A stretch of 39,601 bases of DNA from Thermodesulfobacteriota bacterium (GTDB taxonomy: Bacteria > Desulfobacterota > Desulfobulbia > Desulfobulbales > SURF-16): assembly GCA_039715015.1 (NCBI GenBank), contig JBDLIE010000023.1, positions 1 through 39,601 on the forward strand. The letters are read 5' to 3'. A model generated the notes under the pieces. That model worked only from the letters and a program-made list of their open reading frames with translations, was not told the DNA's origin and made no database searches. Position numbers and translations under genes: made by a program. This document shows, one piece after another, positions 14,065 to 25,669 of the stretch (the first letter of the stretch is position 1; each line of letters starts with the position of its first letter).

Positions 14065-14559
14065 TCAGGGCATCAAATAAAATCCAAGTGCCTTGTCATA
14101 GGCCGGAGAATCGGCCTCATCGAACTGACAACCAACAAAGCCCTGACCAATTACGCGAATTCCTGCCCTTCTTTTGATATGGGTACTGCTTTTATCATCT
14201 AAGTTAAACTCAACCATGAGTTCATCTCCCACTTGAAGATTATGGGAGCCCATAATTGTTAAAGCCAGCCCACTCAATGACAGATCCGCCACCTTGCATT
14301 TCAAGTTAGGTTCAACCTGTGTGTCTGCTGTTTTGATATCTTGATCGACCTTGGTATATTTAGCGTCGATATTCGTAGACTTTCTATATCTCTCCCGAAA
14401 ATCCAAGGAAACAGAAAAGCTATGATTACATGTACATTTCACCTTGAGCGAATGTTTAACACCCTTAAATTTACCCACAGAGACAAGTTTCATGCTCTGG
14501 CAATGCGGGCATTTTATTGCGGCCAGGTTTTCACTGTTAACCCTTATTCTTTTTGACAT
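14065..14559 (-). CDS. Zinc-ribbon + PilZ domain protein (putative c-di-GMP receptor)
   Basis: CPHC...CTC N-terminal Zn ribbon; RERYR (RxxxR) and DLSLSG (DxSxxG) c-di-GMP motifs intact; SD GAGGA. Confidence 0.88.
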   Translation of the reverse strand: MSKRIRVNSENLAAIKCPHCQSMKLVSVGKFKGVKHSLKVKCTCNHSFSVSLDFRERYRKSTNIDAKYTKVDQDIKTADTQVEPNLKCKVADLSLSGLALTIMGSHNLQVGDELMVEFNLDDKSSTHIKRRAGIRVIGQGFVGCQFDEADSPAYDKALGFYLMP

Positions 14560-14966: not shown

Positions 14967-16043
14967 ATGGCAAAAGAACAAGACGATTGCGATGGCCAAA
15001 TTTTTCGGGATATCCTGCAACACATCCACCTCGGCCTGGTCATTATCGATACCAAAAAACAACTCGTCAACTATTATAACCAGCAGGCATCAGAAATTTT
15101 CGACCTCATAAAACTTGATCCAGATTTTGACTCTTTCTATCCTGTGATAGAGTCCTCCGTAAATGAACTTCGTGATTCTGGAGGGCCCCAGAAAGTTAAG
15201 ACCGTAAAAAAACATGGTGAGCGTTTTATAGGTTATACTTTAGATGCTCCCGCCCCCTCCCAACACATCATCTCCATTCTTCTTCAGGATATTACTGATC
15301 AAAAAAGAATGGATTCCATAGCTGAAGCCGTAGTCACCATGAACAACGTGGGCTATATCTTTTCTGGAATCAGGCATGAAATTGGCAACCCTCTTAATTC
15401 CATTAAAATGGCGCTCACTGTTTTACAAAAAAATATTGATCGCTATTCCCCCGACGACATAGAGGTCTATTTTGTCAGAGTGTTTGAAGAAATTTCACGA
15501 ATAGAGCACCTGTTGAAGTCTTTTAAGAACTTTAACATGTACGAAAAACCGCAAACAGCCGTAATGGACCTTTCAGATTTTATTATGCATAATACCCAGC
15601 TGATTACTGCATATTCCAGCGTCAAGGATACATTAATAGGGATCAGTGTTGACATTGAAGAGGGATCTGAAATGGTCAAGGTTGATCGCCGTGCTCTTCA
15701 GCAGGTAACCATGAATGTCCTAGCAAACGCCATGGATGCCATGGAGAACAACTCTGAGGCTCGTCTGGTCATATCTGCACGTTCCCATGGCCCCAGTACC
15801 TTGCTTGAGATTGAGGATAACGGGTGCGGTATCCCGGCGGCTTCCATCCACGATATTTTCAAGCCCTTCTATACAACCAAGGAGAAAGGGACCGGGCTCG
15901 GCCTTGCTCTTTCCAAGAAAATGCTGGCCCAAATGAGTTGCTCCATCGACATAGCAAGTACTGTAGGTGAAGGTACTTCTGTTACCATTACGATCCCTAA
16001 GGCACGTGCTTATGAAGTGGAGAATCACAAACAATCACTCTGA
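14967..16043 (+). CDS. Cytoplasmic PAS-like sensor histidine kinase
   Basis: H-box RHEIGNPLNSI, N-box NVLANAMDAM, G1 DNGCGI, F-box IFKPFYTTK, G2 GTGLGL; no TM; N-terminal PAS-like region. Confidence 0.92.
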   Translation: MAKEQDDCDGQIFRDILQHIHLGLVIIDTKKQLVNYYNQQASEIFDLIKLDPDFDSFYPVIESSVNELRDSGGPQKVKTVKKHGERFIGYTLDAPAPSQHIISILLQDITDQKRMDSIAEAVVTMNNVGYIFSGIRHEIGNPLNSIKMALTVLQKNIDRYSPDDIEVYFVRVFEEISRIEHLLKSFKNFNMYEKPQTAVMDLSDFIMHNTQLITAYSSVKDTLIGISVDIEEGSEMVKVDRRALQQVTMNVLANAMDAMENNSEARLVISARSHGPSTLLEIEDNGCGIPAASIHDIFKPFYTTKEKGTGLGLALSKKMLAQMSCSIDIASTVGEGTSVTITIPKARAYEVENHKQSL

Positions 16044-16244: not shown

Positions 16245-17117
16245 GTGGGTATTCGAACACGTTTTTTGATTATTATGGGAGTTCTTAGTTTTCTGGCCCT
16301 CGTTGCTTTGGGCTGGGCAAGTTATGAATTCAGTCGTCAAACCGCACTTAAAGAAGCTGACAGCAAAGGTGAAATTATTTTCAACTATTTGCAATCTCAG
16401 CGTCATTTTTTCAAAAAGAACCAGACACCTCTTATTTCTGAGCTTATTGAAAAAGATCGCTTTTACCCGAACCTGATGTCCGGTTTTGCCGCCACCAGCA
16501 CAACTTTTGATTATTTCAACAATAGAATGCCTGGTTATATGATTAAATACGCGGCAACTAACCCTTTGAAAGAGACAAATAGGGCCGATGATTTTGAGGT
16601 AACCATCCTTAAACAATTCAAGGCCGACAGCAAACTAAAAGAAACATCAGGCACCATTACCAAAAACGGCATCAACTTCTTCTACCGTGCTATTCCTTTG
16701 AAAGTAGACAACCCAAAATGTCTGGTATGCCATTCCGACCCTGCTATTGCTCCAAAGGACCAGGTTTCTATTTATGGTTCTGAGAATGGTTACAACTGGA
16801 AGATGAATGAGATTGTCGCCAGTCTGCTTGTTTACATCCCTATCTCCGAAGCTATTGCCCAAGCAAAACAAACTGCCTTGATGCTTTTGGGAATTGGGGC
16901 AGGCTGTCTTATTTTTACCCTTTTTGTTATCAGCATTTTCCTTGAAAGAGGAGTTGTGCAACCCATAATACGGCTTAACACTCGTACTGAAGAGATTAGT
17001 CTTGGTAAGGGACTCGACCAAGCTGTTATTATTAAGTCAAACGATGAAGTTGGTTCTCTATCACGAGCCATCGACAGGCTTCGGATCAGCGTAGCCCGCA
17101 TGCTCACAAGGCGTTAA
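16245..17117 (+). CDS. Membrane heme-c sensor (DUF3365/Tll0287-like periplasmic domain) + HAMP, no output domain
   Basis: TM, periplasmic domain with 'NP....NRADDFE' and CLVCH, 'YG.ENGYNWK..EIV', TM, HAMP (P..RL....EEIS.G.....DEVG.L...IDRLR.S), then stop; GTG start with AAGGAG. Confidence 0.85.
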   Translation: MGIRTRFLIIMGVLSFLALVALGWASYEFSRQTALKEADSKGEIIFNYLQSQRHFFKKNQTPLISELIEKDRFYPNLMSGFAATSTTFDYFNNRMPGYMIKYAATNPLKETNRADDFEVTILKQFKADSKLKETSGTITKNGINFFYRAIPLKVDNPKCLVCHSDPAIAPKDQVSIYGSENGYNWKMNEIVASLLVYIPISEAIAQAKQTALMLLGIGAGCLIFTLFVISIFLERGVVQPIIRLNTRTEEISLGKGLDQAVIIKSNDEVGSLSRAIDRLRISVARMLTRR

Positions 17118-17118
17118 A

Positions 17119-17835
17119 ATGAAAAAAATTTCCTTAATCATTTCAGGGCTTTTTTTCTCCCTGTTATTTCTTCTTACCTTTACCGGGCAGGCTTGGACAG
17201 CTGACTGTTTAGCCATCCGCAAAAAAATTGAGAAGGAGACAGATCTCCTCCAGCGGAAAGAGCTTGCTAAACAAGGAATCAGCGATTGTCCCAATGACCC
17301 TATTATAAATTTCGAATTCGCTTATTCCATGGAGCGTTTCCGCAAATACAAGCTTGCCCTGAAACATTATCAGATTGCGGCTAAGCTTGCTCCCAAGTAT
17401 GGGAAAAGCTATTTTGGCATGGGCGACATGTACATGAACCTGGAAAGGCCTGGCGATGCTGTAAAGGCGTATCAGGCAGGTTTGTCTCTGGATCCCAGCA
17501 ATAAGAGGGCTAAGATTTCCATTAAAGAGGCAAAAAAAGCTGCTAAAAAACAGGGCGGTGGCGATGATGGCATTGCTGCCTTTGAGAATCCTCTTGCCCC
17601 TGCTGCTTCTTCAAAACCCAAAAAGACAGCCCGGAAGTCCAAGAAGACCTCACAAGTTTCAAATCCTCTACCTTACGAGCCTGCTAAGGCTCTCATCCTG
17701 CAGGAACCCGAAATAATGAAGCCCATAGTTGCTACTCCTCTCAAATCTGAGAATCTTCAGAATATGAACTTTGACAAGGCTGGCCATTCTGATATCACCG
17801 GTTCTCTGGATGATAATCAAATGGGAGCAGACTAA
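17119..17835 (+). CDS. Exported TPR-repeat protein with Lys/Ala-rich tail
   Basis: Signal peptide; TPR consensus (ALKHYQIAAKLAPKYGKSYFGMGDMY...AVKAYQAGLSLDP); 1 nt after the HAMP gene stop. Confidence 0.8.
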   Translation: MKKISLIISGLFFSLLFLLTFTGQAWTADCLAIRKKIEKETDLLQRKELAKQGISDCPNDPIINFEFAYSMERFRKYKLALKHYQIAAKLAPKYGKSYFGMGDMYMNLERPGDAVKAYQAGLSLDPSNKRAKISIKEAKKAAKKQGGGDDGIAAFENPLAPAASSKPKKTARKSKKTSQVSNPLPYEPAKALILQEPEIMKPIVATPLKSENLQNMNFDKAGHSDITGSLDDNQMGAD

Positions 17836-17861: not shown

Positions 17862-17911
17862 TAAACAAAAAAAACCTGCTTGAATAATTTCAAGCAGGTT
17901 TTTTTTGTTTA
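17862..17911. terminator. Bidirectional rho-independent terminator between convergent operons
   Basis: Perfect 23-bp inverted repeat TAAACAAAAAAAACCTGCTTGAA / TTCAAGCAGGTTTTTTTTGTTTA, 4-nt loop, A- and T-tracts on both sides. Confidence 0.92.
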
Positions 17912-17936: not shown

Positions 17937-18659
17937 TCAGCTCAACAAAGGTCCAACCTCCTGTTTAAACTCATCTTCTAACCGGCTGTCGCCAATTTCT
18001 TTCAAGAGGAACTCCATAAGTTCACCAAAACGATCTTTAGAAGGAGATCCGCCAGCCACCCATTTTTCAACACAGTCCCGGACAACCATGTTGCCAACAG
18101 GACCTATGGCGCGGGCCATGGAATCCTCCAACTTCCTGGCAATAGCAGCAAAAGGGCCTTCACTCATCAATTTATCAACATCAATGACTTTCGCCTTTGG
18201 TTTCGGAGCAGGTTTTGCCCCAGCAGGAGATGCTGTTTTCCTTGCTTGAGGTTGGGAGGCTGCTGGTTTTGCCTGATCTTGCAATTGCGACAGATCAGGT
18301 TTCGCTGTCACCAAATCAACCGCAGCCTTGAGCTCTGCGATAAGCATTGAGGTTGTCATGTTGACAAGGGGCATGCTGACTTCTGGTTCGCAAACTGTAA
18401 CCAATGTCCCCTGTTCGTCAATTTTTTTCAGGAGCATCAGATACTCACTGTTTCTAATCTCGTAGCTCATCACCCCAAGTTCTAATGTGGTTGGGTTAGA
18501 AAAAAAACGTTTCAAAAACGTTCCAACCCTTTCCATGGAAGGGACAGTAAGGGTAGTAGCTGGAGGCATATCACAGGCCACAACCCCGAATTTATCTGTA
18601 TAGACAAATGCCCCGAGTACTCCATTGAGCATCTTTATTTCTTGTAATAAGTCGTTCAT
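17937..18659 (-). CDS. Roadblock/LC7-like N-terminal domain + Pro/Ala/Lys linker + small helical 'IGP' domain
   Basis: LLQEIKMLNGVLGAFVY...GVV and LVTVCEPEVSMPLVNM roadblock pattern; C-terminal LEDSMARAIGPVGNMVV...L.KEI....EDEF; SD GGAG. Confidence 0.7.
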   Translation of the reverse strand: MNDLLQEIKMLNGVLGAFVYTDKFGVVACDMPPATTLTVPSMERVGTFLKRFFSNPTTLELGVMSYEIRNSEYLMLLKKIDEQGTLVTVCEPEVSMPLVNMTTSMLIAELKAAVDLVTAKPDLSQLQDQAKPAASQPQARKTASPAGAKPAPKPKAKVIDVDKLMSEGPFAAIARKLEDSMARAIGPVGNMVVRDCVEKWVAGGSPSKDRFGELMEFLLKEIGDSRLEDEFKQEVGPLLS

Positions 18660-18762
18660 TTACGCTCCCAGTCTGAAATCTCTGCCAAAGTTCTCTATAA
18701 GATCACAACTTGTCATAAAGCGATGGGAGACAAGTCCTCAGTTCTTTGAATAAATTGTTTAA

Positions 18763-19953
18763 TTACAAATTGATTCTCTGCACCATGGGCCGCATGCCAT
18801 CTGCGATTTTCCCGGCTGATGCGTCGTTAGAAAGCTCTATACCAAGAATAATCTGAGGCCCGGGAACAATAAGAATCTTGCTTCCAGTTCTCTTATTAAT
18901 CACTAAACTCTGGGGCGCAGAAATGCCTAAGTCATCATTAAGTTTCTCTGTCTCGGAGAGTAAAATTGTAATGTATGGTCCAAATTCACTGCCATTTTGA
19001 TGTTCGGCAAGCAGAAGCCCTTCCCTGTTCAAGATGGCCAACCGGGTGACGCCATCCATTGAGGTTAAAGCATCAAACATAGGCGTAATCGCTGGAGGAA
19101 TTTCTGGTCCTTCAGGCTCTGAAGCTAAGGAAGCTGGATCTATCTCTTGGGCTATCCCTTCTGCTGTTTCTGCAGGTTGAGCTAGAGAAGCAGGATCTAT
19201 CTCCTGGGCAACTCCCTCTGCCGGTGCTTCTGTTTTTTTCTTTTTCTCATCCTTATCAAGCTCACCACCCCCAGCCTCACGTTCTTTCCGTTCATCCTTC
19301 ATGCGGGCAGATTCAATGAGAACAAAACCCAGTGGCGCATCAATAATTTTTTCCCTTTGACGGCAAAGATGCTGAATCTCTATTTCCACCGGGTCCCAAC
19401 AGGCAATCTCTAGGGCTGCCTCCTGGCCCTGAAGGGTTTCAGTGAAAGCATTCATCAACTCTCCTTCAAAAAAGAAAATGGTGCCCACATGCTCTCCTGA
19501 GCTGACATTGAGAGTACAGGTTTTCTTATCAAGGGAGAGAAGCTGCATAAAAGAGGCCAGGGAGACCCCGGTTATATGCCCTTTCTCTGCAGCGGCAAGG
19601 CCTTCATTGACCTTTTCGATAAGGACATCAAAATCAATGGGCTTTTCAATGTATTGAAAGGCCCCCAGGCTATCGAGCCGTTCTTCTATCTCTGAGGAAC
19701 CAAAGGCTGTCATCACAATAACCGGGATATCAGCATGAGCGGCGCTCAGATGGGCGAGGAGTTCAAAGCCGTCCATGTCAGGCATCTTGATATCCGTAAT
19801 GACCAGATTCACCTCTCCTCTATCCATAACAGCCACTGCCTCTTTGCCGTTATGGGCAGTGGCTATGGAAAAAGACTCACTGAACTCTTTGAGTCCATCC
19901 TCAAGACTCAATAAAAAATTATTCTCATCATCGACAATTAATATTTTTTTCAT
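18763..19953 (-). CDS. Response regulator: REC - DUF4388 (PATAN) - acidic linker - roadblock-like domain
   Basis: ILIVDD, ITDIKMPDMDG (phospho-Asp), VMTA, IEKP intact; GHITGVSLASFMQLLSLDKKTCTL...G.IFF.EGEL..A is DUF4388-like; C-terminal L.SMDGV....ILNREG roadblock-like; start at ATG 19953 (AGGA SD). Confidence 0.85.
   Translation of the reverse strand: MKKILIVDDENNFLLSLEDGLKEFSESFSIATAHNGKEAVAVMDRGEVNLVITDIKMPDMDGFELLAHLSAAHADIPVIVMTAFGSSEIEERLDSLGAFQYIEKPIDFDVLIEKVNEGLAAAEKGHITGVSLASFMQLLSLDKKTCTLNVSSGEHVGTIFFFEGELMNAFTETLQGQEAALEIACWDPVEIEIQHLCRQREKIIDAPLGFVLIESARMKDERKEREAGGGELDKDEKKKKTEAPAEGVAQEIDPASLAQPAETAEGIAQEIDPASLASEPEGPEIPPAITPMFDALTSMDGVTRLAILNREGLLLAEHQNGSEFGPYITILLSETEKLNDDLGISAPQSLVINKRTGSKILIVPGPQIILGIELSNDASAGKIADGMRPMVQRINL
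19123..19221 (-). repeat. Intragenic tandem duplication (57-nt period) encoding AEG(V/I)AQEIDPASLA twice
   Basis: 19123-19164 and 19180-19221 are near-identical, differing mostly at synonymous positions. Confidence 0.9.
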
Positions 19954-19985
19954 ACTCTTTCCTAAGAAAAGCGTGGATTCAAAAC

Positions 19986-22307
19986 CTATTTTGCACAGGT
20001 GGCGCGGATTTGTATGAGGTCTGTATGACCCTGCACTACTTTCCAAATACCGTCCTGCATCAACGTCGTCATACCACCGGCCATGGCTTCATCTCGGATT
20101 TGGGCAACAGGAGAATTTTCTGCAATTTTCAGCTGCAGGGCATCATTGTTGGCCAGCAGCTCATGCACGGCTAAACGGCCTTTATACCCTGAGTGTTGGC
20201 ATTTAGGGCAGCCTTTGCTGCGGTATAAGTCACTATTAAGTTCTTCGTTTGTTAAAGGATAGACCTCATGTTCCCCATAGAGACTGAGGATGAGATCTTT
20301 CTCCTCCTGATCCGGCTGATATTTCTCCTTGCAATGCACACAGAGACGGCGAACCAAGCGTTGGGCCAGTACACCAAGAAGCGAGTCAGCAAAATTAAAT
20401 GGGTCAATACCCATACCAAGCAAACGTGTAACTGTTTCAGGGGCCGAGTTTGTATGCAAGGTTGAGAAAACCAAATGCCCTGTCAAGGCTGCCTCGACAA
20501 CTATCTCAGCGGTTTCTTCATCACGTGTCTCACCAACCATGATTACATCGGGATCAGCACGGAGAAAGGCCCTCAATACTCTGGCAAAATCAAGATCAAT
20601 TTTGGGTTGGACCTGCACCTGGCGGAGGCCATCCTGAACAATCTCAACCGGATCCTCGGCAGTCCACACCTTCCTTTGCGGCGTATTTATCTTGGCCAAA
20701 GCCGCATGAAGGGTGGTGGTTTTACCAGATCCTGTCGGGCCGACCACGAGGACCAAGCCATAGGGAATGGCCAGGATTTGCATGAATTTAGTATAGACAT
20801 GTTCAAGGAGTCCCATTTTCTCAAGGGGCATGGCGCCACTTGCTGCCAGGAGACGAAGAACCGCATCCTCGTTGCCGCCAACAGTTGGCAGGGTTGCCAC
20901 CCTGAGCTCAATAATCTTGCCGGTTCGGGTCTTAAATTTTATCTTTCCATCCTGAGGCATCCTGCGTTCAGAGATATCCAGTTTGGAGATAATTTTGATG
21001 CGGGCAACAAGGGGGCGTTTAAACTGGGCCGGTACAGTCTTATAATGAATGCATTCGCCATCAACCCGGAAACGGATGAGAACGCCTCGTTTACCTGGTT
21101 TGGCCTCTATGTGGATATCAGAGGCATCCTTGACATAGGCATCCTCAATGATCTTATTGACCATCTGAACGACAACACCTTCGGCGACTGCGCCGGTATC
21201 CTCAACAACCTCCTCTTCCTCTGCTTCCTCGACAAGTTCCAGCTGCTCAAAAAGGTCATCATCTTCTTCCATACCAGCAGAAGTTTCTTCCATGCCGTAA
21301 TAGACATCGATAATCTTGTCGATGTCATCTTTCAGAGCCACAGCAAGCTCAATGCCTGTGACATTGAGCGACATCTTAACGTTGTCGGCCCGCACGCTGT
21401 CAGTGGGGTTATCTATGGCCAGCAGAAGATTATGATCCTCATCGTAGAGAGGAACACATTTATTGGTGCGAAAAAATTTCTCTGTGATCCCCTTCACACA
21501 ACTCGGCTGAGGTCCAACATTTCCCTCAGTATATTCCACAAAGGGACAGCCATAATATTCACTTAAGGATTTACAGAGCTCTGTTTTTTCAACACTATAA
21601 CTTTCTATAAGAACAGCTTCGATGGATTTATTCTGCTGTTTCGCAGTTTTCCGTGCCTGTTCAAGATCATTGGTGACAAGATAACCACCACCAATGAGAC
21701 GGAAGAAACGACCCGACTTCTCGGCATTTTGCTTGACAAGGTTTAACCTTTTTCCAGCATCACGAAAAGTGGCATCCAATGAGCAGACAGCCTCAAGAGC
21801 CCGCATGGACTCCTTCATATTGCCATTTTGCTCCTGGGTGACGGCAAGACGATCAAGGATATCTAAACGATCCTTGTCTTCAAGGCCGACATCGCTTAAG
21901 GCCTTTTCAAAATAATCAACAGCCTCATAGGGTTTTTCGAGACGATTATAGCACTGACCAATACGGAAACTGATGAGTCCAGGCTGGATGCTGGACTCAA
22001 ATAGCTTGTGCAGTTCATCAATGGCCTCCTGGAAGAAGCCCGCTTCAACAAGGCCATCACAATTTTCAAGAAGCCCATTGTCGTCAGAACTGCTGGCAGG
22101 AGATACTTCTTTTTCGTGAACCTCTGTTGGTCCACGGGCAGAATCTAAACGCTCTTTGATCTGGTTATAAAGCTTGGAATGCTTTTCTGCATCAAGCTTA
22201 GCAAGCAGTTCCTCATAAATGCCACAAGCTTCACTATCGAGGCCATGTGTTTTATAGAGTTCAGCTTCGGCAAGCCGATCTTCAAAATAATGCTTAGATT
22301 CTGACAT
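19986..22307 (-). CDS. PilB/GspE (PulE) family secretion ATPase with N-terminal TPR region
   Basis: ASDIHIE, LDISERRMPQDG, Walker A GPTGSGKT, Asp box TAEDPVE, LRADPDVIMVGETRD, His box TGHLVFSTLHTN, CxxC...CxxC Zn site; TPR-like helices in the first ~190 aa; alternative GTG start at 22346. Confidence 0.92.
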   Translation of the reverse strand: MSESKHYFEDRLAEAELYKTHGLDSEACGIYEELLAKLDAEKHSKLYNQIKERLDSARGPTEVHEKEVSPASSSDDNGLLENCDGLVEAGFFQEAIDELHKLFESSIQPGLISFRIGQCYNRLEKPYEAVDYFEKALSDVGLEDKDRLDILDRLAVTQEQNGNMKESMRALEAVCSLDATFRDAGKRLNLVKQNAEKSGRFFRLIGGGYLVTNDLEQARKTAKQQNKSIEAVLIESYSVEKTELCKSLSEYYGCPFVEYTEGNVGPQPSCVKGITEKFFRTNKCVPLYDEDHNLLLAIDNPTDSVRADNVKMSLNVTGIELAVALKDDIDKIIDVYYGMEETSAGMEEDDDLFEQLELVEEAEEEEVVEDTGAVAEGVVVQMVNKIIEDAYVKDASDIHIEAKPGKRGVLIRFRVDGECIHYKTVPAQFKRPLVARIKIISKLDISERRMPQDGKIKFKTRTGKIIELRVATLPTVGGNEDAVLRLLAASGAMPLEKMGLLEHVYTKFMQILAIPYGLVLVVGPTGSGKTTTLHAALAKINTPQRKVWTAEDPVEIVQDGLRQVQVQPKIDLDFARVLRAFLRADPDVIMVGETRDEETAEIVVEAALTGHLVFSTLHTNSAPETVTRLLGMGIDPFNFADSLLGVLAQRLVRRLCVHCKEKYQPDQEEKDLILSLYGEHEVYPLTNEELNSDLYRSKGCPKCQHSGYKGRLAVHELLANNDALQLKIAENSPVAQIRDEAMAGGMTTLMQDGIWKVVQGHTDLIQIRATCAK

Positions 22308-22386
22308 GGGAATTTTGGGTAAAAGCTGGGAAACGTTCCAAAACACATCTCAACTAGATATGCACTTTTAGTTCCTTAAAATTGAG

Positions 22387-24003
22387 TTACAGTCTGGTGA
22401 TATCTACTACAGGGATGGGGTCTCCGAACTCAGAAGAAATCGTACCACTAAGCAAATCTCCTTCACGGCTCGTGCTGGGAGTCCAATTATACTGATTACC
22501 GATTTCCAGTTCTTCAAGAGGAGATTGCACCAAAACAACCCCCCCTTTAGCTGCCTGGAAAAGAATGACTATCTGTTTTCCCTCTCTGCCGGAGGCCGGC
22601 ACAGGAATATCTAGAACAGGGAACTCCAAAGTTGCCAACTCCTTATTAGTCTTCTCCAGCAATCCACCACGAAATTTTGCCCTTAAGCCGGACCAGAACC
22701 AGCCCTTAAGTTTTTTTAATTTCAAAGAATGTTGCCGGGCTAAATTTCCCATCCCAAATCCAGCTTTTGCCGTAAAGCAAACTTGGTCTGGGATAAATGC
22801 AACATGTTCTCCTCGCCAACGCCCCACCATGAGCATGGGCCATGGAGGTGTTGAAGCGCCTGCAGAAGGCGTCGGAGCAGATTGCGGGGCGCCAGTTGCT
22901 TCAGCAAGTTTTGGCAGGGGTGGCAAGGGACCAAAATTCCCATCAAGGGCAGCTGCCACATAATTAAGCTGCCCCATTAAGCCACTGCGGATTTCGAAAT
23001 GAATAGTATGTAACTTTTTCTGCCCATCCATGTCGGCGAATAATTTCTCAATGGGAGCAATACGTCGAGCACAATGGTTAAGAACCTGCAAATGATACTG
23101 CATGAGCATCTTGCATTCGTTTCCAAGCTTAATACTAATAGAGACCGGGCCTGTCACAGGCATAACATTGCTGTAACGACCACCTAACGCAGCCTTCAGT
23201 TGGTCGCACTGTTCTGCAAGTTGCTCCCTTACGGATTTAATAACAACATGGAGTTTGGCCACGCTGGCTGTCTTGCCAAAAAAATTCTCCACAGGAAGGA
23301 GACGTTTTTTAACAAGCTGGTCAAGGCGGCCGATATGATTTTTCAGGGCAACTTGAAAATCTTGGGGAAGGGGGGCAACAGCAGGTGCAGCAGGTGCAGT
23401 TGGAGCAACAGCTGGGGCTCCTTCTTGGGCAGGAAGTACAGACTTCAGAGCATTCTGGGCCTGCTCCAGCTGGGTTCTTGTCTCGGCGCTGTATGGTTGG
23501 CCCTCACGGGCAGCAGCCTTGAGGGCGGTCAAACTACTTTTTAAGGCAAGGGGACCTGAGGTAGGCACACTTTCCGGTGCGTCACTCATGACGGCAAGGA
23601 CATTATGCATCAATGAGATAACCCCACCCTCACCCACTAAAGGCCCAAGATCATAGGCGCGTGCCGTTTTATCTAGCAAGTCACGCATATTTCCGGCATT
23701 TGAACGGCTTACCTCCCAATCAAGTGTCATCAGTGACTGATCAAGCTTGCTGAGCAACTCATGGCTTGGCGCACTTGGAGCAGGGGCAGCCGCAGCTGCT
23801 GTAGGTGCTGCCTGGCCGCCGCCTTGGCTTTCTAACTCTAGAGCAGGAGACTCTGCTGCCATGGGAGCGGGACTCCCTATATCCTTCACCTCATTGGTGG
23901 CCGGGTCTATTTCAATCTGGCGAACTGCATTAAAAAGGTCATCAACGGCATCTGAAATTTTTGCGTTAAAATCGCCTTGATCGTCAAGTTCATTACTGCC
24001 CAT
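22387..24003 (-). CDS. Hypothetical protein of the mgl operon: helical domains, internal duplication, CheW-like C-terminus
   Basis: Long ORF with SD AAGGAG (9-nt spacing to ATG 24003; alternative ATG 24009); LDWE-containing helical bundle; two ~65-aa repeats; C-terminal beta domain ending G..IPVVDITRL. Confidence 0.75.
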   Translation of the reverse strand: MGSNELDDQGDFNAKISDAVDDLFNAVRQIEIDPATNEVKDIGSPAPMAAESPALELESQGGGQAAPTAAAAAPAPSAPSHELLSKLDQSLMTLDWEVSRSNAGNMRDLLDKTARAYDLGPLVGEGGVISLMHNVLAVMSDAPESVPTSGPLALKSSLTALKAAAREGQPYSAETRTQLEQAQNALKSVLPAQEGAPAVAPTAPAAPAVAPLPQDFQVALKNHIGRLDQLVKKRLLPVENFFGKTASVAKLHVVIKSVREQLAEQCDQLKAALGGRYSNVMPVTGPVSISIKLGNECKMLMQYHLQVLNHCARRIAPIEKLFADMDGQKKLHTIHFEIRSGLMGQLNYVAAALDGNFGPLPPLPKLAEATGAPQSAPTPSAGASTPPWPMLMVGRWRGEHVAFIPDQVCFTAKAGFGMGNLARQHSLKLKKLKGWFWSGLRAKFRGGLLEKTNKELATLEFPVLDIPVPASGREGKQIVILFQAAKGGVVLVQSPLEELEIGNQYNWTPSTSREGDLLSGTISSEFGDPIPVVDITRL

Positions 24004-24118
24004 CAGCATTTACTCCTTTTCTATTCACCCTTTTTCCAGATTTCTTTCCGGGGGAAATTTCCTAGGTTCAACTGAAAACTTTTAAAGAAATCGCCAACTC
24101 GGCCCGAGATGAAAACTG

Positions 24119-24733
24119 TTATTTATTAAAAAGATGCTTATTGGCGACGTAGTTTACAGTACGTTTGCTGATCTCTTTAAGGGTCTCAAATACTCCTGGG
24201 CCTTTGGTGGCGGTACACTCGAACCAGGGGACCTGATATTCCTGGTTCAAATCCTGTTCCAGCTCTTCAACTGTCAAGGTAGGAACCGGGGTATCGCAAA
24301 GATCTCGTTTATTATACTGGAGAACAAGGGGCATCTCTTTGAGATCCAGTCCATGGTCAGCAACATTGCGACGTAGATCATCGAGACTCTCGATATTCCG
24401 TTCTTGCCTCACCTTGAGGGGATCCGCAACAAAAACAAGGCCATCAACACCTTTCAGTACCAGTTTTCGGGTGGCCTCATACATTACCTGGCCGGGAACG
24501 GTATAGAGTTGAATGCGAATATCAAAGCCACTAATCTTACCAAGGTTGAGGGGGAGAAGATCAAAAAAGAGCGTTCGATCACCCTTGGTATCAATGGTCA
24601 GCATCTTGCCACGATCATCATCGCTCATGGCATTGTAGATATAGAGAAGATTAGTGGTCTTGCCACATCTTCCCGCACCATAATAAACGATTTTACAGTG
24701 AACTTCTTTCTTTCCAAGGTCAATTAAGGCCAT
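24119..24733 (-). CDS. mglA: MglA small Ras-like GTPase
   Basis: KIVYYGAGRCGKTTNL (G1), DRTLFFD (intrinsic Arg finger), LYTVPGQV (catalytic Gln), LKGVDGLVFVAD, QYNKRDL (G4). Confidence 0.95.
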   Translation of the reverse strand: MALIDLGKKEVHCKIVYYGAGRCGKTTNLLYIYNAMSDDDRGKMLTIDTKGDRTLFFDLLPLNLGKISGFDIRIQLYTVPGQVMYEATRKLVLKGVDGLVFVADPLKVRQERNIESLDDLRRNVADHGLDLKEMPLVLQYNKRDLCDTPVPTLTVEELEQDLNQEYQVPWFECTATKGPGVFETLKEISKRTVNYVANKHLFNK

Positions 24734-24736
24734 TGA

Positions 24737-25132
24737 TTACCCTTCAAAAATCTTATTGATATCCTCAGCCAGCTCTTCAACGCGAACACGAACAAGGCCA
24801 AGGGAAACATCATCAGCGAAAATACTCACCAAAATCATCTCACCACCTAATCTGGCAAAATGGATATTAGCCTTTTCCCCCTTATGGTAAAGCAGAGAAA
24901 AGTCATTTTCACCAATGAGCTTGGCTATCTGAGAGGTGGCCCCAAAATTGGCGGCGGTTAAGGCTGCTAACGAAATGGCATCCAATCCATCAGTATCTTG
25001 ACCGCAGTGGGCCAAAATATTTCCTGCTCCATCAATTACCATAACCGTCTGAACATTCTCACTGATCAGCTTATCGTTGATTATTGACTTCACATCCTCG
25101 ACAGACTCTGCTGTCAAAATCATGTCTGGCAC
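24737..25132 (-). CDS. mglB: MglB roadblock/LC7 GTPase-activating protein
   Basis: ID.AGNI, SLAALTAANFGAT..IAKLIGENDF..L.H.G, F.DDVSLGLVR motifs; 3 nt upstream of mglA; GTG start. Confidence 0.92.
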   Translation of the reverse strand: MPDMILTAESVEDVKSIINDKLISENVQTVMVIDGAGNILAHCGQDTDGLDAISLAALTAANFGATSQIAKLIGENDFSLLYHKGEKANIHFARLGGEMILVSIFADDVSLGLVRVRVEELAEDINKIFEG

Positions 25133-25265
25133 GTACTTTCCCCCTACTTATTTTTTTTAAAAAGTCTCATTCTTCAAGCTTCCATAACAACATACGCATT
25201 ATTACAAGGAAGATAATCCCCTGGTCCATATCAAAAAAACAGAGACAAACCATTCACACAAACGG

Positions 25266-25293
25266 GTTACATCATTGTTAACTTATCGTTACA
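25266..25293. promoter_or_regulatory. Three GTTA(C/A) direct repeats with 11-bp period, putative OmpR/PhoB-type operator
   Basis: GTTACA at 25266, GTTAAC at 25277, GTTACA at 25288, immediately downstream of the mglB -10. Confidence 0.45.
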
Positions 25294-25294
25294 C

Positions 25295-25324
25295 ATTCTA
25301 TGATTTGCCGAAAGGGCTTGTCAA
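25295..25324 (-). promoter_or_regulatory. sigma70 promoter of the mglBA operon
   Basis: Minus strand TTGACA (25324-25319), N18, TAGAAT (25300-25295). Confidence 0.65.
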
Positions 25325-25399: not shown

Positions 25400-25669
25400 T
25401 TAAGCGCCAGCCCGGTTAAGCCTCTCTTCAACCACCCTGTTCTTTAAGGTACGGCAAACTTCAAAACCATCAATGCCCGGCAGAACTAAATCTAACAGGA
25501 TAAGATCAATTTTCTCCGATCCATCTGTCATCTCTTCTTTTTTGTTAAATAAATCAAGAACTTTCTCTTCTGAGAGGCGCGGCAAAAACCTTATCAAACC
25601 CACCTTGTTCAATACTGCAGTCAGAATCTGCGCTAGCAATGGTGAGTCTTCAATAACGAGTATGGCCAA
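25400..25669 (-). pseudogene. Truncated receiver (REC) domain fragment
   Basis: ILVIEDS and IDLILLDLVLPGIDGFEVCR are present, but the beta4 Thr/Ser and beta5 KP are missing; stop after AGA; TTG start. Confidence 0.6.

Follow-up and report, generated by a model that had tools for sequence, protein, structure and literature searches.

A conserved MglA/MglB gene block in Desulfobulbales that may couple a heme-Cache receptor to a second type IV pilus ATPase

We analyzed a 39,601-nucleotide stretch of contig JBDLIE010000023.1 (assembly GCA_039715015.1, hereafter the window) from a Thermodesulfobacteriota bacterium of the order Desulfobulbales. Between positions 17937 and 25324, six co-oriented genes on the minus strand encode MglB, MglA, a 538-residue protein (orf3), an ATPase of the PilB/GspE family with an N-terminal tetratricopeptide repeat (TPR) module, a response regulator and a second roadblock protein (orf6). 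From the domain identities and the co-occurrence of these genes we infer a pathway, with all its contacts and outputs, in which a receptor encoded by a convergent neighboring gene would act through a roadblock adaptor on MglA-GTP, which in turn would engage a second extension ATPase on a type IVa pilus (T4aP) machine encoded elsewhere in the genome. We put the probability of this pathway at about one half. The genes on which the argument depends are the following:

24737..25132, minus strand: mglB, 131 residues, a roadblock GTPase-activating protein (GAP), with PF03259 over the cut-off.
24119..24733, minus strand: mglA, 204 residues, a Ras-like GTPase, E 6e-64 to Myxococcus xanthus MglA.
22387..24003, minus strand: orf3, 538 residues from the second ATG, CheA-like and without a kinase domain.
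19986..22307, minus strand: TPR-MshEN-ATPase, 773 residues, PilB/GspE family, with an SgmX-C-terminal-like TPR module at residues ~60-198.
18763..19953, minus strand: REC-DUF4388 (PATAN)-roadblock response regulator, 396 residues, assigned by Pfam.
17937..18659, minus strand: orf6, 240 residues, a roadblock (1-119) and a C-terminal IGP helical domain (168-240).
16245..17117, plus strand: Cache_heme (Tll0287/DUF3365)-HAMP membrane receptor (PF11845 and PF00672) with a CxxCH motif and no output domain.

By homology, MglA and MglB are a GTP switch and its GAP. MglA aligns in register with its M. xanthus counterpart and has the features of a Group 1 MglA, namely a P-loop, the intrinsic Arg53 and Thr54, a TVPGQ motif with Gln82, an NKRD motif and an adjacent mglB gene; these residues are conserved in the aligned homologues, and R53 and Q82 are the arginine finger and catalytic glutamine that the initial annotation had pointed out. 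MglB has a roadblock/LC7 domain homologous to MglB of M. xanthus and Thermus thermophilus and aligns to residues 15-131 of the 160-residue M. xanthus chain. It stops at the equivalent of residue 131-132 and lacks the C-terminal helix, which serves nucleotide exchange in M. xanthus MglB (PMC6785124).

By profile comparison, the N-terminal TPR triad of the ATPase shares homology with the triad at the C-terminus of SgmX-like proteins. A profile built from the N-terminal 205 residues of the ATPase matched 38 ATPase fusions along with 41 further TPR proteins, the latter mostly 850-1150 residues long, and in 38 of these 41 the best match was the C-terminal region. The SgmX model was the best NCBIfam match for 10 of 11 such proteins, two of them at model positions 860-1014. 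Profile-profile alignment (HHalign) of 44 fused modules with 37 of the 41 C-termini (four were left out) returned a probability of 99.6% and an E of 1.8e-24 over 126 columns, whereas four sets of control TPRs gave E values between 8e-9 and 4e-5. The homology to TPR12-14 rests on SgmX-like proteins, and the comparison contained no M. xanthus SgmX sequence: a search for myxobacterial SgmX yielded Gemmatimonadota relatives among the best 120 of 2406 matches, and a Protein Data Bank sequence search with the TPR returned designed or generic repeats and no SgmX entry. According to excerpts of the published work, the last three TPRs of SgmX (TPR12-14) bind MglA-GTP and not MglA-GDP (PMC7668184), with a dissociation constant of 0.6 µM (PMC13408092). 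A predicted complex of MglA, GTP and Mg with TPR residues 60-198 scored 0.01, which weighs neither way.

The same module recurs in sister mglBA-orf3 clusters, as a stand-alone gene in 7 loci (6 of the 7 scoring 108-125 bits to the TPR profile) and as a fusion with a Ser/Thr kinase immediately following orf3 in 6 loci (20-63 bits). This distribution suggests that the MglA-effector arm stays constant while its output can change. Arm-kinase fusions occur at L101, L103, L117-L120 and L130-L133, six directly after mglB-mglA-orf3 and four, labeled by BLAST only, away from mglA.

The ATPase itself appears equipped for catalysis: Walker A and B, the Asp and His boxes and the tetracysteine zinc site are all present and kept in 39-42 of 42 homologues. 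The motif by which MshEN domains bind cyclic di-GMP (c-di-GMP) is RLGxxLxxxG. It is found in none of the 42 homologues and is present in the canonical PilB and MshE of the host genome, and gating of the operon ATPase by c-di-GMP was therefore rejected. Loci L078, L079 and L124 yielded PATAN-linked parts of such ATPases, namely an ATPase with a weak N-terminal DUF4388 match, sister to the operon ATPase, and an MshEN-REC-DUF4388 protein.

The host genome encodes six PilB/GspE-type ATPases versus three secretins and three platform genes, belonging to a T4aP machine, an MSHA-like cluster (contig C4) and a type II secretion system (T2SS; C17). The T4aP parts are dispersed, with pilMNOPQ on C12, pilC on C4, the canonical PilB on C5 and a PilT-like ATPase on C35, and none of the 39 open reading frames (ORFs) of the window scanned against Pfam or NCBIfam matched a pilin, platform or secretin. 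The operon ATPase is surplus to the three machines, which agrees with its initial description as an alternative motor. In 4 loci of relatives the mglB-mglA-orf3 core runs directly into downstream pilMNOP. Two features of the T4aP genes are recorded here in their own right: the canonical PilB of the order has a cyclic-nucleotide-binding domain at its C-terminus and is encoded apart from other pil genes (G000:C5:74929-77145, L052, where G000 is the host genome), and the T4aP secretin is apparently split into a 630-residue AMIN/N0/STN/TPR gene followed by a 570-residue secretin gene (G000:C12:25562-29197, L053).

The machine driven by the same switch could instead be the MSHA-like pilus or the T2SS, the purpose then being adhesion or secretion (of cytochromes, for example) rather than twitching. 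All nine pilin-motif matches of the host genome fall in the C4 and C17 clusters, and one locus outside the order, L092, abuts an MSHA-like cluster. The C4 and C17 clusters, however, each carry their own ATPase, and extension ATPases are usually machine-specific; moreover, the repeated linkage is to pilMNOP and the best sequence matches of the operon ATPase are PilF/PilB, slightly above GspE. We regard this alternative as improbable.

Gene order around the switch is well conserved, as a gene-neighborhood comparison suggested with the initial annotation was able to establish. Orf3 is present in 15 of 40 relatives, and these loci together with 10 picked by MglA gave 25 loci within the order. The mglB-mglA-orf3-ATPase genes are contiguous in all 25; the exact six-gene order occurs in 19 (in one of which the last gene is cut), three loci are cut by contig ends and three, all from one family, are rearranged. 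The nearest named record carrying orf3, at 75% identity, is a genome of the Desulfurivibrionaceae, a family of Desulfobulbales (the scan of named genomes gave this one locus). Outside the order, near-full-length orf3 was found in 11 of 351 phylum genomes; mglA-orf3-ATPase is contiguous in 10 of these 11 loci (with mglB in 9 and none found in L091) and cut in one. The last two operon genes, encoding the REC-PATAN regulator and orf6, are in none of these 11 core loci, and the stable core is therefore the first four genes, mglB-mglA-orf3-ATPase, and not the six-gene unit described initially.

MglA sequences from 151 genomes of the order split into two groups. The clade of the operon (at least 68% identity) is found in 40 of the 151 genomes, and exactly the same 40 carry the TPR-fused ATPase. 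In the other group, common in the order, mglB-mglA precedes a gene for a long protein whose helical repeats resemble those of orf3, and none of the 10 such loci read contained an ATPase gene. The host genome holds a member of this group as well (G000:C13:527-4804, L054), in which mglB-mglA is followed by a 621-residue protein with orf3-like repeats, a zinc-ribbon/Ig protein and a roadblock-like gene. The third gene of this clade encodes 435-1939 residues, and none of three scanned had a Pfam match.

Orf3, an unknown protein in the initial annotation, looks derived from CheA, without being a CheA member, and is best described as a kinase-less CheA-like scaffold. Its AlphaFold2 (AF2) model, computed from 83 sequences, has a mean confidence (pLDDT) of 84 and three domains: an HPt/P1-like bundle at residues 76-194 (Z 10.5 to CheA P1, root-mean-square deviation (rmsd) 3.3-3.4, 114 aligned residues), a four-helix bundle at 214-355 arising from a duplicated hairpin and a CheW/P5-like domain at 387-538 (Z 10.1 to CheA P5, rmsd 3.1, 119 aligned residues). 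The P1 likeness is less sure than that to P5 because a Z below 13 between helical bundles can reflect a common arrangement. The best Foldseek matches are CheW and CheA at E ~1e-2, with none at E ≤ 0.001, and orf3 groups with CheW and Hpt clusters in the Atlas. An active CheA was rejected: the HATPase_c (P4) kinase domain is absent from the 25 Pfam families listed for 83 orf3 members and the model leaves no room for it, and a phospho-acceptor histidine is not conserved in helix B of P1, where any column from 100 to 116 has a histidine in at most three of 76-78 rows. The family was matched in 83 of 351 phylum genomes.

Genes for chemosensory proteins do lie near the core in some lineages. In 8 of 11 loci outside the order it adjoins an HDOD-cheB-cheB cluster, which continues to cheY-cheA in 4 of 5 extended loci. 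Clusters of this type (L107-L111 and G000:C37:7135-19022) have two or three CheB-type genes, one of them PATAN-fused, plus HDOD; in lineages outside the order they run divergently to mglB, and in the host genome they are unlinked. A chemoreceptor array is not required, because genome G072 (10 contigs, 97% complete) keeps the operon and has no match to flagellin, CheW or methyl-accepting chemotaxis proteins (MCPs); an obligatory link of orf3 to such an array was rejected on this ground.

The convergent heme-Cache-HAMP receptor is probably the input of the pathway. It has the Cache_heme-HAMP (CHH) architecture, comprising a Cache_heme domain with CxxCH, membrane anchors (identified by eye) and a terminal HAMP without output, and CxxCH is found in the window protein and in 13 of 14 syntenic HAMP proteins checked. 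As reported in the available excerpts, a homologue with this architecture binds nitric oxide (NO; PMC12889525), and the HAMP of an output-less receptor binds, with nanomolar affinity, a pair of kinase helices that start with IGPLA and IGPIA (10.64898/2026.05.25.727664). Orf6 has a related motif: its C-terminal family consensus is A-I-G-P-(I/V)-(G/A/S)-x-M-V, with G186 and P187 invariant in 19 of 19 sequences, which makes it a candidate HAMP-binding adaptor. A Ser/Thr kinase with tandem IGP bundles was looked for in the flanks, where no ORF matched Pkinase; the single IGP domain is instead on a roadblock.

Across 70 mglA loci, an output-less HAMP gene and an IGP gene are both present in 25 and both missing in 38, with the IGP gene alone in 5 and the HAMP gene alone in 2. 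The two genes are adjacent in 8 of 8 rearranged or distant mglBA loci of other lineages. In families f16 and f17 (54 genomes without the operon), each of the 23 genomes that encode the receptor also encodes a full-length homologue of orf6, in 9 cases as a convergent pair less than 1 kb apart. The unit is thus not the self-contained switch first proposed, because the receptor gene on the far side of the terminator varies together with the last gene and probably supplies the input. The host genome has a second Cache_heme-HAMP receptor and TPR pair (G000:C10:69283-70679), with no orf6-like gene alongside.

The N-terminus of orf6 is a roadblock fold (Z 14-15.7 for the AF2 model), and its Z of 13.3 to the MglC structure reflects generic roadblock likeness only. 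Its IGP domain resembles DUF8082 with an Atlas score of 0.76, a lead only, and among 60 candidate longer proteins none carried the domain at E ≤ 1, which is weak evidence. In the REC-PATAN regulator, PATAN/DUF4388 accompanies a phosphorylatable REC in 23 of 23 family members, with D8, D9, D54 and K104, and so the phospho-acceptor Asp, invariant. The three roadblocks initially described are firm for MglB and orf6; the third, in the REC protein, is detected by PF03259 in 9 of 23 family members and undetected in the protein of the window (hhalign probability 34%). The orf6 and REC roadblock profiles matched the MglB profile only weakly. The histidine kinase encoded at 14967..16043 is a candidate kinase for the regulator.

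These parts could operate as follows. (a) The heme-c Cache-HAMP receptor would sense redox state or a heme ligand, the latter being NO in the characterized homologue. (b) The receptor's output-less HAMP would bind the IGP helices of orf6, roadblock dimerization giving the two helices that in the published kinase come from a tandem repeat. (c) The roadblocks of orf6 and of REC-PATAN would act on or with MglB, setting where MglA-GTP persists. (d) MglA-GTP would bind the ATPase-fused SgmX-like TPR triad and so recruit or license the ATPase at the T4aP base (pilMNOPQ and pilC, encoded elsewhere), without c-di-GMP control. (e) The adjacent kinase would phosphorylate REC-PATAN, whose PATAN domain would contact the ATPase N-terminus as in cyanobacteria, and orf3 would be a non-catalytic scaffold. 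The kinase is suggested to act on the ATPase through REC-PATAN because PATAN binds the PilB1 N-terminus in Synechocystis, as stated in the available part of that report (10.1101/2021.06.11.447907). The fullest version, a complete receptor-G-protein-motor relay in which a periplasmic receptor for NO or another heme ligand, lacking an enzyme output, recruits via its HAMP a roadblock adaptor that tunes the GTP cycle of MglA, and in which MglA-GTP switches the pilus motor directly via a fused SgmX-derived arm, all of it assembled on a scaffold that descends from a dead CheA, is a tentative proposal with the odds against it.

Several observations weigh against the pathway as a whole. On the motor side, the ATPase falls under the equivalog cut-offs of PilB (TIGR02538, 521 versus 675.65 bits) and GspE (473 versus 630) and forms, in a quick tree, its own clade apart from canonical PilB and sister to DUF4388-fused ATPases; no T4aP major pilin was found in the host assembly; and 34 of 40 carriers also have a canonical PilB, on which count we rejected the operon ATPase as a sole PilB. 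For the arm, the SgmX-like proteins all score far below the SgmX cut-off and were picked by the same TPR profile with which they are compared, their first-repeat motif HYNLG reads ENCxGL in the ATPase TPR, and the TPR of the window has no direct match to the SgmX hidden Markov model (HMM), which 1 of 11 members matches (E 0.0056), MamA being the best generic match. The same arm is found on a kinase, and the output therefore need not be a pilus. For the receptor, 13 genomes of family f1 have it without a full-length orf6, 5 of 40 operon carriers lack it, and the receptor, orf6 and REC genes are all missing from 11 of 11 core loci outside the order; the proposed receptor-orf6 IGP link rests on a short motif, and the HAMP and IGP HMMs were trained on some loci of the 70-locus table. 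Finally, the kin loci counted in the conservation and co-occurrence tallies are not independent.

Part of this evidence would suit an ATPase that is a signaling or positioning hub and not an extruder, clustered at the pole by MglA-GTP, where it would scaffold or inhibit canonical PilB or position a chemosensory array via orf3. The separate clade and sub-threshold scores of the ATPase, the arm on kinases and the che genes beside the core outside the order all fit such a role; the retention of all catalytic motifs and the operon of G072 speak against it, as do six carriers without canonical PilB that retain PilM, though the five examined hold another orphan ATPase. We consider the hub unlikely, while taking it seriously. 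Canonical PilB is missing in these 6 of 40 carriers versus 4 of 111 other genomes, and PilM is present in 148 of 151. Platform and PilT-like genes are retained in the five PilB-less carriers examined, but so is that other ATPase, which makes the pattern only suggestive. In four genomes of family f15 (G050, G059, G072 and G078) canonical PilB is unmatched, and PilM, a solo PilC-like gene and PilT-like genes are present.

Alternatively, the genes may be co-regulated yet belong to two loosely related modules, one being mglB-mglA-orf3-ATPase and the other a receptor-adaptor pair that has an output of its own; the TPR would then be generic and would not bind MglA. The receptor-orf6 pair does occur without the operon, the core occurs without the pair, and the direct SgmX HMM score is weak. 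Set against this are the recurrence of HAMP and IGP genes in mglBA clusters of other lineages, invariably adjacent, and the position-specific TPR homology relative to the controls, and we give a two-module arrangement little credence. We retain the receptor-to-ATPase pathway as the best explanation, keeping polarity and a dedicated extension ATPase as suggestions. Of the original interpretation, the conserved order, the surplus motor and the pilMNOP linkage hold, whereas self-containment, the size of the core and the identity of the 538-residue protein had to be revised.

The remaining features of the locus are these:

25295..25324, minus strand: candidate sigma-70-type promoter TTGACA-N18-TAGAAT, 11/12 match, with a conserved T-rich element just upstream.
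17862..17911, both directions: bidirectional intrinsic terminator, a perfect 23-bp inverted repeat with A8/T8 runs, z -9.5.
17119..17835, plus strand: TPR protein (Pfam), with a putative signal peptide (by eye), co-conserved by synteny.
14967..16043, plus strand: cytoplasmic PAS-like-HisKA-HATPase histidine kinase (Pfam).

The six ORFs, separated by gaps of 3, 115, 79, 32 and 103 nt, lie between this promoter and terminator as first described. The promoter is the best promoter-like site of the scan. The number of such sites was at chance level (13 versus 12.7 ± 3.2 expected), and significance from the count was rejected; support comes from conservation of the boxes across 10 family loci, with TTGACA in 8 and both boxes at 18-nt spacing in 7, in surrounding DNA that has diverged. 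The terminator repeat was missed by the scanner. The three convergent genes past it (kinase, Tll0287-HAMP and TPR) adjoin the operon in 17 of 20 informative loci of the order; one further locus has the kinase and a heme-less HAMP sensor in a rearranged setting, in two the genes are absent, and the histidine kinase gene is syntenic in 18. Upstream of the promoter, 25400-25669 (minus strand) is the remnant of a truncated receiver domain, with a similar remnant in L024, and a PilZ protein with N-terminal cysteine pairs (14065-14559, minus strand) is divergent from the kinase gene and syntenic in the family (6 loci). The host, initially called a probable sulfate reducer, has dsrA over the cut-off; this gene does not discriminate reducers from disproportionators or oxidizers.

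Each part has known relatives, compared here with the excerpts of the cited reports. The locus would work like the MglA-SgmX-PilB branch of M. xanthus, with which it shares a Group 1-type MglA (R53/Q82), a coupled MglB, extra roadblocks (PMC7668184, PMC7519303, PMC9811614, PMC11580455) and a triad homologous to the SgmX-like C-terminal region, a PilB-type ATPase being the presumed target. It is not a member of that branch, because it has neither a full-length SgmX (NF052243 is unmatched in the host genome; 100 contigs, 99.99% complete) nor the MglB C-terminal helix. It also differs in forming one gene block, in fusing the triad to a second ATPase rather than carrying it within a 1060-residue SgmX, and in its CheA-like scaffold, REC-PATAN-roadblock and heme receptor, which are not among the named M. 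xanthus components.

The receptor side resembles the CHH receptor-Ser/Thr kinase system of Pseudomonas azotoformans (10.64898/2026.05.25.727664; PMC12889525) in its output-less CxxCH Cache-HAMP receptor and in a neighboring protein whose C-terminal helical domain has an IGP-x-(A/G/S)-x-hydrophobic helix. Unlike in that system, the IGP domain is single and roadblock-fused, not tandem on a kinase, with no Ser/Thr kinase nearby; preprint 10.64898/2026.05.25.727664 contains no occurrence of MglA, GTPase or roadblock. REC plus DUF4388/PATAN near a PilB-type ATPase recalls the cyanobacterial PatA-type regulators acting on PilB1/PilC (10.1101/2021.06.11.447907), but here the order is REC-PATAN-roadblock, in an MglA operon and not a Tax/Pix system. 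Two distinct extension ATPases have been proposed for one pilus machine in Acinetobacter baylyi, PilB and TfpB (PMC11656802), for which the excerpt describes no GTPase module; the operon ATPase scores 405 bits against the TfpB model (cut-off 850). The association of PATAN with MglAB systems noted in the initial annotation has been published: MglA occurs with MglB and sometimes near PATAN genes (Wuichet and Sogaard-Andersen 2014, PMC4316618). That study lists related sulfur-cycle genera as 'MglB>MglA', and its supplementary file 3 contains no occurrence of PilB, TPR or CheW. Literature searches, with most subscription papers and the gene neighborhoods of preprint figure S1 outside their scope, yielded no description of the operon, the TPR-ATPase fusion, the CheA-like scaffold or the receptor-roadblock link.

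In M. xanthus, how SgmX brings PilB to the pole is stated as open, with no SgmX-PilB or MglA-PilB contact detected, in the text available (PMC11580455); the fusion of an SgmX-like triad to an ATPase makes this GTPase-to-motor step addressable with a pair of purified proteins. What lies downstream of output-less heme-Cache receptors is likewise given as open (10.64898/2026.05.25.727664, in the part available), and here such a receptor appears tied to a small GTPase via a roadblock adaptor. The analysis also identifies a widespread family of kinase-less CheA-like proteins. If the proposed pathway is correct, it would allow sulfur-cycling bacteria of sediments to connect the sensing of gas or redox state with motility on surfaces.

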